Shown here: piece by piece, positions 27,469 through 48,168 of the stretch
Layout of the letters: each line of letters opens with the position of its first letter
Position numbering within the stretch: the first letter of the stretch is position 1
DNA from: Escherichia coli
Lineage (GTDB): Bacteria > Pseudomonadota > Gammaproteobacteria > Enterobacterales > Enterobacteriaceae
Length of the DNA stretch: 64,000 bases
Assembly (NCBI RefSeq): GCF_041886205.1
Contig: NZ_CP169029.1
Strand: one strand, 5' to 3'
Notes under the pieces: model-generated
What the model was told of the DNA's origin: nothing
The model's input: only the letters and a program-made list of their open reading frames with translations
The model's database searches: none
Position numbers and translations under genes: made by a program

Positions 27469-27741
27469 CAATTATTGAGGTGCCTGTTGATTCTGATATG
27501 CAGTAAGGAAATGTTCCGGGTTTGCCACATCACTGTTTGACAACTCATCACTGTAGGCCAGTATTTCATAGATTAATTTCCCACCACTATTGTTGAATTC
27601 CGAATTTCATCCTGTACGACAAAAGAATGGCTGTAGGGTGGGGAAAAAACACAAAGTAAACAATAATTGACGAATATAGCGCCACGCTGTTCGCAACCTA
27701 ACCAAACAGTCACTTTCGAGCAATTTTCCTTGAAAAAGAGG

Positions 27742-27770
27742 TTGACGCTGCAAGGCTCTATACGCATAAT
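27742..27770 (+). promoter_or_regulatory. sigma70 promoter of the tRNA operon
   Basis: TTGACG (-35), 17-bp spacer, CATAAT (-10), then GC-rich discriminator GCGCCCC typical of stringently controlled stable-RNA promoters. Confidence 0.6.
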
Positions 27771-27808
27771 GCGCCCCGCAACGCCGATAAGGTATCGCGA
27801 AAAAAGAT

Positions 27809-27885
27809 GGCTACGTAGCTCAGTTGGTTAGAGCACATCACTCATAATGATGGGGTCACAGGTTCGAATCCCGTCGTAGCCACCA
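27809..27885 (+). tRNA. metT: tRNA-Met (elongator, anticodon CAU)
   Basis: 77-nt GGCTACGTAGCTCAGTTGGTTAGAGC...GTAGCCACCA, anticodon loop CTCATAA. Confidence 0.95.
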
Positions 27886-27893
27886 TCTTTTTT

Positions 27894-27978
27894 GCGGGAG
27901 TGGCGAAATTGGTAGACGCACCAGATTTAGGTTCTGGCGCCGCAAGGTGTGCGAGTTCAAGTCTCGCCTCCCGCACCA
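27894..27978 (+). tRNA. leuW: tRNA-Leu (anticodon UAG)
   Basis: 85-nt GCGGGAGTGGCGAAATTGGTAGACGC...CTCCCGCACCA with long variable arm; anticodon loop TTTAGGT. Confidence 0.95.
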
Positions 27979-28001
27979 TTCACCAGAAAGCGTTGTACGG
28001 A

Positions 28002-28076
28002 TGGGGTATCGCCAAGCGGTAAGGCACCGGTTTTTGATACCGGCATTCCCTGGTTCGAATCCAGGTACCCCAGCCA
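28002..28076 (+). tRNA. glnU: tRNA-Gln (anticodon UUG)
   Basis: 75-nt TGGGGTATCGCCAAGCGGTAAGGCACCGGTTTTTGATACCGG...CCCCAGCCA. Confidence 0.95.
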
Positions 28077-28110
28077 TCTTCTTCGAGTAAGCGGTTCACC
28101 GCCCGGTTAT

Positions 28111-28185
28111 TGGGGTATCGCCAAGCGGTAAGGCACCGGTTTTTGATACCGGCATTCCCTGGTTCGAATCCAGGTACCCCAGCCA
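28111..28185 (+). tRNA. glnW: tRNA-Gln (anticodon UUG)
   Basis: Identical copy of the glnU sequence. Confidence 0.95.
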
Positions 28186-28200
28186 TCGAAGAAACAATCT

Positions 28201-28277
28201 GGCTACGTAGCTCAGTTGGTTAGAGCACATCACTCATAATGATGGGGTCACAGGTTCGAATCCCGTCGTAGCCACCA
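28201..28277 (+). tRNA. metU: tRNA-Met (elongator, anticodon CAU)
   Basis: Identical copy of the metT sequence. Confidence 0.95.
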
Positions 28278-28324
28278 AATTCTGAATGTGTCGAATATGT
28301 TCGGCAAATTCAAAACCAATTTGT

Positions 28325-28399
28325 TGGGGTATCGCCAAGCGGTAAGGCACCGGATTCTGATTCCGGCATTCCGAGGTTCGAATCCTCGTACCCCAGCCA
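28325..28399 (+). tRNA. glnV: tRNA-Gln (anticodon CUG)
   Basis: 75-nt TGGGGTATCGCCAAGCGGTAAGGCACCGGATTCTGATTCCGG...; anticodon CTG is wild type (not the supE amber-suppressor allele). Confidence 0.95.
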
Positions 28400-28436
28400 A
28401 TTTATTCAAGACGCTTACCTTGTAAGTGCACCCAGT

Positions 28437-28511
28437 TGGGGTATCGCCAAGCGGTAAGGCACCGGATTCTGATTCCGGCATTCCGAGGTTCGAATCCTCG
28501 TACCCCAGCCA
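28437..28511 (+). tRNA. glnX: tRNA-Gln (anticodon CUG)
   Basis: Identical copy of the glnV sequence. Confidence 0.95.
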
Positions 28512-28517
28512 CATTAA

Positions 28518-28545
28518 AAAAGCTCGCTTCGGCGAGCTTTTTGCT
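28518..28545 (+). terminator. rho-independent terminator of the tRNA operon
   Basis: AGCTCGC-TTCG-GCGAGCT hairpin followed by TTTTTGCTTTTCT. Confidence 0.8.
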
Positions 28546-42077: not shown

Positions 42078-43529
42078 TCAGCTAAACAACATCGCGATTT
42101 TGCCGAGAGCATAACCTATCACCAGCACCGTTAAACTGATTTTGATAATGCCGGTAATGCTCTGTGGTTTTTCATCCTCATCATGTATTTCTTCATGGTT
42201 TTCAGGTGTTGGCTCATCGACATCTTCATCCTCCGGCTCCAGTTTCACTTTCGTCAACAGCATCCGGGTGACAATGGCCTCTAATGGATGAGCATCTCCG
42301 CCTTCCAGCCTTGTATTAAGACGGGCCAGCATCTCTTGTTTCGGAAACGCTTCAAGTACTACCTGTTCCGCTACCCGATACAAATCCAGTAACGGTGAAT
42401 CTTGCTCTGTCTCGCTACCGACTCTCGATTTCCACCACGCCCATGCTTTGCGTTTGAAGAATAACGACTCAATAAACGATTGACCTAACGGCGATAATTT
42501 TCCGCTATGTAAAATCTCCGCCCATAACAGCCGCGTCCGGGCGCTCTCACCAGGAACATATTTCAATGGTTTACCTTGCGCATCTACCATGCTCTGCGCT
42601 TCGATAACCATCACTAATAACGCGAAATAATCTGGGCAATGACGCTTACTCCACTGCAACAACAAATTATCAGCTTGTGTAGATGGGTAACTTTCCCGGT
42701 ACGCGCAGAGATCGGCAAGCAGGCTTTCCCCCTCGCCGCAGTACAACCTTTGAGCACACAAGTAATATCGGGCATCTTCGCTTTCTGGTTCTTCCATTTG
42801 CCACTGTTTGGCTACAGGAATGAGTTCCGCCATACCTGTTTGCACCGAGCTGTACCAGCGCAACAGTTTGCGATGTAACTTTGCATCATCAGGAATGAAC
42901 CACGGACCTTCCATCGCCAGAAACGCAGTGACATAGTCAGGATGGTAACGGCAGCAACGTTCCAGCGCGAAGTAATACTCAACCGTCTGGTTCTGCAACG
43001 CAACGGGAAATTCCAGAAGGCTAAGGAAATCGAAACAATCACCAGCCTGAATGGCCTCAAGAAAAGCCTCCCTTTCTTCCTCATCCATTCCTTCGCTGTC
43101 ATTAAACGAATGCCAGTTCAAACGCTCTGCCAGCAAAGAAGCACAATTTAATGAAAGATATCGCGCTTCTATAGCGATTGCACACAGCGGCCAGCGTAAT
43201 TGATAGACATCCTCCATGTTCCAGGTATTTAATTGCTGAATAAATTTCTGCCAGGCGGAGGGCTGAAAACGATCACTTTCTGAATCCAGTAATGTCCTGA
43301 ATGCACGTAGTATTTCATGTTCAGCGGCGGCATCTTTATCTTCATTATCTGCTTCCTCGACAGGATTTACCGCCAGTCGCAGCGCCTCTTCATAGGCCTG
43401 GCGTAATGCTTTAAACCCTTGCGGATCGGTTTCGGGATGACATAACGGTAAGCGAGCAAGATAAGCCTGGCGGATAATGTCTATTTGCGTCGTGCTTTCA
43501 ATTTCGAGGATTTGCCAACATGTTTTCAT
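42078..43529 (-). CDS. djlC: J-domain co-chaperone DjlC (YbeV), C-terminally tail-anchored
   Basis: 483-aa [38 protein letters not shown]; C-terminal hydrophobic segment [22 protein letters not shown]. Confidence 0.9.
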
Positions 43530-44233
43530 AGGTCGCTCACATCCTTAAGCGTTACCGGGCATTCAGGCTGGGCAGTTAATGGCTGCCAGGGAAGCGTGGC
43601 ATAGAAACGATCGCTTCCCGCTGCCAGCTCTTCGAACATCCGACTCCCGGCGCTATCGTATTTGTACAGGGTTAGCGCCTCGCGTAGCGAAGTGTTGTCT
43701 TCGCACTGAGAAGATTGCCAGTAGAGACGTCCTAACGAATAGGCAGAAAAATAGTGCATCCAGCTGTGATAGTAATGGTGAGCTCGTACATAGACGCGCG
43801 ATTGCAGCCATAAACTCTCTTCTTCCGTCAGCCACTTGTTGAGCACACCGACCCGTGACAGAAACCCCATTCGAACATAATCCCAGGCTTTGATTCCCCC
43901 TTCTCCACAGCACATAGCGGTTTGGGCAACGAATTGGGTATAAATCAACCCTCTCTCCGAGCCACCAGCAATTAATGCTTTCCACTCTTCAGGGGAAGAG
44001 CGATGCCATGTCAGATATAAGCCAGCTAAATCATTGGCATGACCATCATCAGTCATCTGATAAATAGTCTGAATTAAATCATCACGATTATTTATTCCCT
44101 AGGATGATGAGAGATCGAATTCTTTTATCCCGGTATACATTTTTGGCGAGTCATGCGCGGGTTTGCAACCCTGATTAAGTATTTCCATGGGCGCAGAAAG
44201 CGCAAAAAGAAGATATTGTTCATCCTTATTCAT
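43526..44233 (-). pseudogene. ybeU: DUF1266 protein YbeU interrupted by in-frame amber codon at codon 45
   Basis: Reading frame from ATG at 44233 ([23 protein letters not shown]...EFDLSSS) hits TAG at 44099..44101, then continues in the same frame to stop at 43526; paralog ybeR has Trp at the equivalent position. Confidence 0.65.
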
Positions 44234-44898: not shown

Positions 44899-46322
44899 TC
44901 AACCGAACAGATGGAGTATTTTCCCTATCAAACCAGCAAAGATAAAAATATAGAAAATAATTTTAATGATGCCCAGACAGCCTGGCCCACCATCGTCAAC
45001 GGGCATTGGCTGCGGTTGCGGCTCCGGTTCAACAGTTTGCTTCTCGGTAAAATTCGCCGCCTGAATTAATAATCGACGAATAATTAATGCTTCCAGTGGA
45101 CAACGATCTTCTGCATCAAGGCGGCTCATAATCGGCATTAATGATTCTTCTGTTGGTTGGCCTGCACTAATTGTTTGGCAACTAAATATAATGGCCATAA
45201 GGGATGTTCTGTATCACGCGTGAGTGAGATCCGCGGCTTACGTCCTTTGTGCAAAACCATCTCGACCAGTGAACGCCCCAGAGCAGAGAGTTTTTCATCG
45301 CTGAGTATTTCGTATAAATGAAAACGCGTACGGGCGCTGTCGCCGGGGATATAAAGTAGCGGTTTTCCCTGATCGTTAACCAGTTCACGAGCTTCAATCA
45401 TCATCACCACTAACGGGTAATAATCGACCCGATGCTGACGGCACCATTGCAATATTAAAGCATCCGCCTGGGTGGAGGGATACTCGCGCCAGTAGTCACA
45501 AAGTTCTGCCAGCAAGCTTTCGCCTTCTCCACAATAGACGCGTTGTGCGTATTCATAATAACGCGCATCTTCATTATCAGATTCAGCTTCCCGCCACGAC
45601 CGGGCGTAATCCAGGAGTTCGGGAATTCCCAGGCGACCTGCGCTATACCAGCGGAGTAAATTTCTGTGCAGTTTTGCATCATCGGGGATAATCACTGCGC
45701 GATGTTGCGCTAAATACAATGTCAGCCATTCTGGATGCGATGACCAAATCCGAGCGAACATTTGGTAAAAATCGATGGTGTCATTTTGCACGGCAACGGG
45801 CAGATGCAGAATGGTCTGGAAGTTAAAAACATTCCCCTTCGCAATGGCATATAAAAAGGATTCCAGTTCTTCTTCGTCTATTTCCCCGGTATTTTCCTCC
45901 TGTAACCACCGCAATCTTTCTGCTAATAACACCACGCACTCGAAGGATAAATGGGCCGTGTTCATGGCTATTGAGCACAGCGACCAGCGTAATTCATCAA
46001 TCTCATCCATCGAGCAATAATTTAATTGCTGAATGAATCGCTGCCAGGCGGAGGGCAGAAAACGTTCACTATCAGAGGCAAGTAACGCACGAAAGGCGAG
46101 CAGAATTTCATGTTCTGCTACCTCATATTCTTCTGGTTGCCAAACAGATTTAGCAGGCGACTGCGCAATCCGGAGCGCTTCCTCATACGCCTGACGAAGT
46201 TGTTTAAAACCCTGCGGATCGGTTTCTGGATGAAAGGACGGTAACAGCGCCAGATAAGCGCGGCGGATAATATCGACGTCAGTCGTTTCCTCTATTTCGA
46301 GAATCTTCCAGCAATTTTTCAT
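44899..46322 (-). pseudogene. djlB: J-domain protein DjlB (YbeS) split by a frameshift at a CCAA tandem repeat
   Basis: N-terminal 394-aa ORF (46322..45138) and overlapping 99-aa ORF (45198..44899) in another frame are both collinear with paralog DjlC; total span 1424 nt is not a multiple of 3. Confidence 0.65.
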
Positions 46323-47026
46323 AGGTCGCTCATATCCTTAAGCGTTTCCGGGCATACAGAATAGTAAGCCAATGGTTGCCAGGACAAGGTGGGGTAATAC
46401 GCATCATCACTGGCAAATAATTGATAAAACATATCATTGCCGGAATCGTCGTATTCTTTACGCGCTAAGAATTCACGTAATAACTGCAGATTATCATCCT
46501 CGGGAGACTGCCAATATTGCCGACCAAAGGTATAACCGGCAAAGTATTGCCGCCAGTTACGATAATAACGTAGAGCCCGTAGATGAATGCGCGACTGGAT
46601 CCATAGACTTTCTTCTTCGCTCAACCAGTTATTAAGTACGCCCATTCGGCTTAAAAAACCCATCCGGACATAATCCCAGGCTTTAATTCCTCCCTCACCA
46701 CAGCATTCGGCGGTGCTGGCGACAAATTGCGCATAAGCCTGACCTTGCTCATTTAGTTCAGCAAGATAGTCACGCCATTCACACGGAGAATAACGAAACC
46801 AGCGGTGATAAAACCCTGCCAACCGAGCGGCATGACCGTTATCGATCATTCGGTGAATTGTGCGCAGCAGGTCATCACGGTCATCAATTCCCCATGAGGA
46901 AGAAAGGTCAAAAAAGCATGTACCTAAATACATTTTGGGTGATGAATGCGAAGGTAAACAGCATTCATTGCGTATTTCCATCGGAGTTGACAGAGCAAAC
47001 AGTAATTTTTGCGACTCCATGTCCAT
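46319..47026 (-). CDS. ybeR: DUF1266 protein YbeR
   Basis: 235-aa ORF, paralog of ybeU; stop overlaps djlB start (4-nt overlap). Confidence 0.85.
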
Positions 47027-47190: not shown

Positions 47191-48168
47191 ATGATTTTTA
47201 CGTCAAGTTGCTGCGATAATTTATCAATAGATGAGATTATCGAACGTGCTGAACAAGGCGATTGCGAGGCTCAATATATTGTTGGGTTTTATTATAATCG
47301 CGATAGCGCAATTGACTCTCCGGACGACGAAAAGGCCTTTTACTGGCTGAAGCTTGCCGCTGAGCAAGGCCATTGTGAAGCACAATATTCCTTGGGGCGG
47401 AAATACTCCGAGGAGAAAAGCCGTCATAAAGATAATGAGCAAGCCATCTTTTGGCTGAAAAAAGCAGCCCTACAAGGCCATACTTTCGCTTCCAACGCCC
47501 TTGGCTGGATACTGGATCGTGGAGAAGACCCCAACTATAAAGAAGCGGTTGCCTGGTATCAGATAGCCGCGGAGAGCGGAATGTCTTATGCGCAAAATAA
47601 TCTTGGATGGATGTACAGAAATGGCAACGGAGTCGCACAAGACTATACGCTGGCATTTTTCTGGTACAAACAAGCTGCATTACAAGGCCATAGTTACGCA
47701 CAAGACAATCTGGCCGATCTTTATAAAGACGGAGAAGGCGTTGCTCAAAACAAGTCACTCGCCGCATTCTGGTATTTGAAAAGCGCACAGCAGGGTAATC
47801 GGCACGCCCAGTTTCAAATTGCATGGGATTATAACGCTGGCGAAGGGGTGGACCAGGACTATAAGCAAGCGATGTACTGGTATCTGAAGGTTGCTGCTCA
47901 GGAAAGCGTCGGCGCTTACGTCAACATCGGTTATATGTATAAACACGGACAAGGCGTTGAGAAAGATTATCAGGCCGCCTTTGAATGGTTTACGAAAGCC
48001 GCTGAATGCAATGACGCCACAGCCTGGTATAACCTGGCCATTATGTATCACTACGGAGAAGGAAGACCTGTCGATCTCCGACTGGCTCTCGACCTGTATC
48101 GTAAAGTTCAGTCATCCGGAACCAGAGATGTCAGTCAAGAAATTCGTGAGATTGAGGATTTACTGTAG
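47191..48168 (+). CDS. ybeQ: Sel1-repeat protein YbeQ
   Basis: 325-aa frame (MIFTSSCCDNLSIDEI) with about eight Sel1-like repeats (AQYxLGxxY pattern). Confidence 0.85.
   Translation: MIFTSSCCDNLSIDEIIERAEQGDCEAQYIVGFYYNRDSAIDSPDDEKAFYWLKLAAEQGHCEAQYSLGRKYSEEKSRHKDNEQAIFWLKKAALQGHTFASNALGWILDRGEDPNYKEAVAWYQIAAESGMSYAQNNLGWMYRNGNGVAQDYTLAFFWYKQAALQGHSYAQDNLADLYKDGEGVAQNKSLAAFWYLKSAQQGNRHAQFQIAWDYNAGEGVDQDYKQAMYWYLKVAAQESVGAYVNIGYMYKHGQGVEKDYQAAFEWFTKAAECNDATAWYNLAIMYHYGEGRPVDLRLALDLYRKVQSSGTRDVSQEIREIEDLL

Follow-up and report, generated by a model that had tools for sequence, protein, structure and literature searches.

The window, a 64,000-nucleotide stretch of an Escherichia coli genome, carries the gene order holA-lptE-leuS-ybeL-ybeQ-ybeR-djlB-ybeT-ybeU-djlC-hscC-rihA-gltL, which is the usual neighbourhood of these genes and shows the same synteny in annotated genomes. 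Within it, djlB (ybeS) occupies positions 44899..46322 of the minus strand, a span of 1424 bp that is 4 bp shorter than the 1428 bp of the intact gene. The span is divided between two frames. The first (45138..46322, minus strand) begins at the ATG at 46322, runs for 394 codons to a TAA at 45140..45138, and specifies 390 native DjlB residues followed by the shifted residues QKNH. The second, in another frame of the same strand (45198..44899), encodes a DjlC-like C-terminus together with its tail anchor. Both features had been reported in a preliminary description of the locus, which placed the end of the N-terminal frame after 394 codons at 45138 and the DjlC-like C-terminus in a separate frame at 44899..45198, and these coordinates proved correct. 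The N-terminal frame opens with a J domain (residues 4-47; 46182..46313, minus strand), identified by a weak match to the Pfam DnaJ model (PF00226, i-E = 9.6e-4) and by alignment with DjlC. At residues 31-33 (46224..46232, minus strand) it carries the tripeptide HPE instead of the canonical HPD, a substitution that the alignment also reveals in DjlC.

The leftover tract at the site of the frame switch consists of (CCAA)2 followed by C (45152..45160, minus strand), where the parental sequence reads GG-CCAA-CCAA-CCAA-CAG. The 8-mer CCAACCAA (45153..45160, minus strand) is unremarkable on its own: by chance 2.4 copies would be expected, and the window has two. It is thus the comparison with other genomes that makes the case for a lesion. 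A short distance downstream, the premature TAA produced by the frameshift (45138..45140, minus strand) shares its final A with the native-frame ATG of Met397 (45138..45136, minus strand), creating a TAATG overlap. From this ATG an out-of-frame remnant of 79 aa (44899..45138, minus strand) extends to the native stop, and its translation aligns with the C-terminus of DjlC. The tail-anchor segment (44902..44991, minus strand; native residues 446-475), the sole stretch of the protein with Kyte-Doolittle 19-aa window means above 1.6, is cut off from the J-domain frame. Among the neighbouring genes, djlC (42078..43529, minus strand) and hscC both encode intact products in the window, and ybeU (DUF1266; 43526..44233, minus strand) is interrupted by a TAG at codon 45 (44099..44101).

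DjlB and DjlC are class C J-domain, tail-anchored membrane proteins whose J domains share 64% identity (PMC8215388). DjlC stimulates the ATPase activity of HscC, whereas the partnership between DjlB and HscC has been assumed from homology and gene position (PMC8215388). Similarly, membrane insertion has been demonstrated experimentally for DjlC, with the tail both required and sufficient, and is assumed for DjlB (PMC8215388, PMC6794478). Combined deletion of djlB and djlC leads to higher Cd2+ sensitivity, and in K-12 DjlB, DjlC and HscC all lie below proteomic detection (PMC8215388). When the window djlB is repaired in silico, its product aligns end to end with the window DjlC (49% identity, E = 4e-161), and the two have in common the HPE motif, a hydrophobic tail at the C-terminus and their place in one gene cluster; they differ in that DjlC is intact here. 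The J domain, the full-length homology and the position in the cluster are all those of a DjlB/DjlC tail-anchored co-chaperone, with the exception that the tail anchor is not in frame with the J domain, whose frame ends at 45138. The locus can be regarded as djlB by descent, yet it encodes no tail-anchored protein.

When 5,426 complete E. coli genomes were searched by megablast with the 1424-bp djlB span, 3,708 of them gave full-length matches, nearly all spanning 1428 bp. In alignments against other genomes the 4-bp gap of the window allele falls exactly on the CCAA repeat at 45153..45160, which is where the frame switch had been placed beforehand. An exact parent allele is present in strain LHM10-1, whose djlB shows no mismatches to the window over 1424 nt and contains one extra CCAA. 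The LHM10-1 site reads GCAGGCCAACCAACCAACAGAAG and encodes QANQPTEE from a (CCAA)3 tract, and the window site reads GCAGG----CCAACCAACAGAAG, with a (CCAA)2 tract and a shifted frame. Identity at all 1424 positions plus a single additional CCAA identifies the lesion, at the level of sequence, as a CCAA tandem repeat that has contracted from three units to two; within the repeat, any one of the three may be the unit that is gone. The LHM10-1 gene encodes an intact 475-aa protein (WP_040062403.1). The same 475-aa protein is the annotated djlB product of CP52E, XJ5.2 and ET201, genomes that match the window allele except for the 4-bp gap across site queries of 81 and 141 bp. VE-T9 likewise reads GG-CCAA-CCAA-CCAA-CAG at this site. 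The single 475-codon frame that one added CCAA had been proposed to restore is in reality a naturally occurring allele, found in LHM10-1, CP52E, XJ5.2 and ET201.

Most E. coli djlB alleles contain no exact CCAA repeat. The common A38-type allele reads GCAGGCGAACCAACCAACCGAAG and also encodes QANQPTEE, here from an (AACC)3 tract, and the K-12-type allele reads GCAGGCCTGCCAACCTACAGAAG, encodes QACQPTEE and has no repeat. The preliminary description had attributed the lesion to slipped-strand loss of one 4-bp unit: the loss of the unit is borne out by the comparison with LHM10-1, and slippage, of which such a contraction is the signature, is the mechanism that we infer for it. With an otherwise identical parent that has one more unit, and with a premature stop that is repeated in independent assemblies, the locus belongs to the class of frameshift pseudogenes formed by tandem-repeat contraction.

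The site queries of 81 and 141 bp located the two-unit allele in exactly four of the 5,426 complete-genome records, namely PT62 and LP5-1 (both from pigeon, China), 6EVA (human, Singapore) and wlxctx60 (bear, Japan); LP5-1 and PT62, whose records are equally long, are probably one strain. The 141-bp query matched exactly these four records at 99% identity or above, and the 81-bp query matched eight at this threshold, comprising the four listed here and four others that were taken as clipped alignments. The djlB genes of PT62 (NZ_CP090448.1), 6EVA (NZ_CP138428.1) and wlxctx60 (NZ_AP045833.1) are 100% identical to the window over 1424 nt, including the two CCAA units, and LP5-1 (NZ_CP101866.1) matches the window completely across the 81- and 141-bp queries. 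PGAP annotation was read for three of the four records (PT62, 6EVA and wlxctx60), and in each the gene is given as 'djlB, J domain-containing protein, frameshifted'. The djlB frameshift is already flagged in public annotation, and is in this sense a known and ordinary inherited pseudogene. Five complete genomes contain the three-unit CCAA parent in the site queries, and a synthetic query with four CCAA units gave no match at or above 99% among the complete E. coli genomes. The arrangement in two frames, confined to four of 5,426 complete genomes, is not a universal state that conceals some other gene structure; an intact single frame is the normal structure of djlB.

Beyond complete genomes, the exact 394-aa product was found on 189 contigs and its exact intact 475-aa parent on 226 (NCBI, ENA and Logan). 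Six sampled contexts of the 394-aa product lie 2-7 SNPs from the window over 8-13 kb, and all sampled contexts that reach ybeU retain the ybeU stop. The window itself differs from wlxctx60 and 6EVA by 5-9 SNPs over 16 kb, and hence represents a separate isolate. At positions 47891 and 40819 it differs from every related genome examined, private SNPs that mark it as a distinct isolate of the clone. Taken together, these comparisons indicate that the two-unit allele is real, fixed and circulating in a diversified clone. They also bear on the possibility that djlB is actually intact and that the 4-bp gap was introduced in sequencing or assembly. Other assemblies may contain errors close to this site, for example a 1-bp deletion within a T-run in the tail-anchor region of the VE-T9 djlB, which is possibly an assembly error. 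Against this, the clean loss of a tetranucleotide unit is atypical of homopolymer-type errors, and the window allele is found unchanged in assemblies made independently in China (PT62), Singapore (6EVA) and Japan (wlxctx60). Given its recurrence across these assemblies and across 189 contigs, we reject sequencing error, to which we attach next to no probability.

Another possible reading is phase variation, with the CCAA tract as a contingency locus that switches reversibly between an anchored and a truncated DjlB. Slipped-strand phase variation at tetranucleotide repeats is well known from the contingency loci of Haemophilus and Neisseria. The djlB lesion resembles these in that the gain or loss of one tetranucleotide unit within a coding region shifts the reading frame, and recurrent switching could also explain the presence of the two-unit allele on two haplotypes, each with a three-unit sibling. 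However, contingency loci are characterised by a long tract with several lengths, including expansions, whereas the djlB tract reaches a maximum of three units and exists in the two- and three-unit states only, with no four-unit allele found. A three-unit tract is far shorter than the contingency repeats that are known. Furthermore, no contraction was seen among matches ranked from 100% to 97.2% on the background of the equivalent (AACC)3 tract, which occurs in more than 1,200 complete genomes; K-12-type alleles lack a repeat altogether. Finally, the two-unit state and the ybeU stop stay linked in diversified window-type isolates, in the manner of a single inherited mutation rather than a switch. 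We therefore regard phase variation as very improbable.

The frameshift alters the predicted protein substantially. Residues 1-390 are kept, the four residues QKNH are gained, and residues 391-475 are lost. The loss of the C-terminus was correctly anticipated in the preliminary description, which had set it at 86 residues; the true count is 85, with 390 native and four shifted residues kept. The missing part comprises a conserved helical stretch (391-430), a linker rich in Pro and Glu and, at the C-terminus, the single transmembrane tail anchor, and the view that this hydrophobic anchor has been placed out of frame agrees both with the hydropathy profile and with the literature (PMC8215388, PMC6794478). 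By analogy with DjlC, we infer that truncated DjlB, if made, would be unable to reach the inner membrane, and that its function would be lost. It may in addition be unstable, because the conserved helical stretch is lost along with the anchor. A soluble J-protein, as foreseen in the preliminary description, is one putative outcome; a product that is unstable or not made is equally conceivable, and PGAP treats djlB as a pseudogene. The phenotypic effect of the lesion may be nil, given that the HscC partnership of DjlB is assumed and that DjlB lies below detection in K-12.

It could be argued that function persists, either because ribosomes shift back into the native frame or because the gene is split, with reinitiation at TAATG yielding a tail-anchored fragment of 79 aa that acts together with the soluble J-domain part. 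A programmed -1 frameshift can be rejected: inspection of the 24 nt from the deletion to the stop (GCC AAC CAA CAG AAG AAT CAT TAA) revealed no slippery heptamer of the X XXY YYZ type. As to a split gene, the TAA at 45140..45138 overlaps the Met397 ATG at 45138..45136, the 79-aa ORF is uninterrupted as far as the native stop, and automated callers report it as a gene of its own in public assemblies. A TAATG overlap is a classic arrangement for translational coupling, and termination-reinitiation at this point could in principle give a small tail-anchored peptide. Nonetheless, TTA-ATG is the native Leu-Met codon pair, so that the overlap is a by-product of the shift and not an evolved signal; there is no strong Shine-Dalgarno sequence ahead of the Met397 ATG, nor any sign that the J-domain and tail fragments would associate. 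Overall, continued function by either route seems to us highly unlikely.

The djlB lesion does not stand alone. In the window, codon 45 of ybeU has changed from TGG to TAG (plus-strand T at 44100, C in relatives). This stop is common to 6EVA and wlxctx60, where PGAP records an 'internal stop', and is absent in PT62 and in all strains with three CCAA units. The window-type clone consequently carries two lesions in one cluster, in djlB and in ybeU, and PT62 differs from it in having an intact ybeU and a divergent ybeT-djlC tract. Other lineages show independent disruptions of the cluster. In CUVET23-RF4, which has the (AACC)3 background, GA is duplicated 12 bp downstream of the repeat, VE-T9 has the 1-bp djlB deletion described above, ET201 has a frameshift in hscC, rihA is interrupted by IS1 in XJ5.2, and megablast matches to some genomes indicate IS5-family/ISKpn26 insertions within djlB. 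More broadly, djlB has no match in 1,033 of the 5,426 complete genomes and a partial match only in a further 685, many of which have just the last ~128 bp, so that intact-length djlB is missing from about a third of complete genomes. The ybeQ-hscC cluster, which is poorly understood, is clearly dispensable in E. coli and decays often. The proteins of the cluster were also considered as members of a known defence system or curated family, and this was rejected: PADLOC returned negligible Sel1/PtuA noise and NCBIfam returned nothing.

The history of the contraction is less straightforward than its nature. SNP matrices were compiled over 13 kb and 64 kb, and donors were sought for the ybeT-djlC tract of PT62. 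Over 64 kb, the identity of wlxctx60 (two units) and of LHM10-1 (three units) to the window is at least 99.94%. PT62 (two units) and ET201 (three units) are 1-1.8% diverged from the window to the left of ~38.9 kb (gltK/gltL), and follow the window haplotype from there on. PT62 has additional mosaic structure: its ybeT-ybeU-djlC region (~44.8-42.3 kb) is divergent from ~375 bp away from the deletion, and divergence resumes beyond 52.3 kb; the search for a close donor of its ybeT-djlC tract gave a best match of 98.8%. In PT62 and ET201 an IS621 (IS110-like) element is inserted between the tRNA-Met/Leu/Gln cluster and ubiF (window ~28632; 27544..28524 in their loci), an insertion that is absent from the window, wlxctx60 and LHM10-1. 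Each of the two haplotypes that bear the two-unit allele, the window type and the PT62 type, has a near-identical three-unit sibling, and a single clean vertical history is for this reason not established.

One way to account for this pattern is that the contraction arose twice, in the window-type clone and again in the PT62 lineage, as a result of a local mutational hotspot or of selection against DjlB and perhaps against the whole ybe/hscC module. In support of two events, PT62 groups with the three-unit ET201, the two having in common the diverged left flank, the IS621 insertion, the ~38.9 kb breakpoint and a SNP at 46938. Additionally, the assembly GCA_002324835.1 (NTEP01000013.1) and 12 similar places combine the PT62-type divergent tract with three CCAA units and a djlB that, apart from the 4-bp gap, has no mismatches. 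The window-type clone for its part has close three-unit siblings (LHM10-1, 99.94% over 64 kb), and the cluster has been struck by further lesions (the ybeU amber stop, the ET201 hscC frameshift, the CUVET23-RF4 GA duplication and the IS insertions). Several observations nonetheless weaken the argument. PT62 is a clear recombination mosaic, and a window-type conversion patch of less than 1.5 kb, lying between the markers at 46326 and 44784, would otherwise go unnoticed, as djlB shows no other difference among these genomes. The more than 1,200 (AACC)3 genomes without a contraction speak against an intrinsically hot site, and within the shared block it is a single SNP (46938) that opposes the indel. 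The rarity of suitable donors counts in turn against conversion. Two contractions and one contraction moved by a short conversion patch would both fit these data, and we rate the two histories about even; a recurrence driven by a hotspot or by selection is a serious possibility that we hold slightly below that mark. A more ambitious version, in which independent contraction in both haplotypes, the ybeU stop and the other cluster lesions amount to a convergent loss, possibly under selection, of the DjlB arm of the HscC module, with TAATG perhaps leaving a split gene that makes a soluble J-protein and a 79-aa tail-anchored peptide, appears unlikely.

We are able to propose, with high confidence, that djlB in this genome is a frameshift pseudogene that arose through the loss of one unit of a three-unit CCAA repeat and has thereby lost its tail anchor. 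In this scheme, the repeat within codons 388-392 (GCC AAC CAA CCA ACA, A-N-Q-P-T) has lost one unit, most likely by slipped-strand mispairing during replication, and the reading frame has shifted such that translation halts four codons on, at the TAA. The lesion is fixed and is passed on vertically within an established E. coli clone. We found nothing at odds with this genetic account. Any product would be 394 aa long, retaining the J domain together with most of the part specific to DjlB. By analogy with the DjlC tail, it would not be inserted into the inner membrane, and so would not recruit HscC there. The membrane HscC system would probably be reduced rather than abolished, because DjlC and HscC are both intact in the window.

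The finding carries little weight beyond annotation: it describes a clone without membrane-anchored DjlB, in which YbeU is interrupted as well. The natural allele could be used as a ready tail-less DjlB in studies of HscC targeting or of cadmium sensitivity, and the paired two-unit and three-unit sibling strains would provide near-isogenic comparators.
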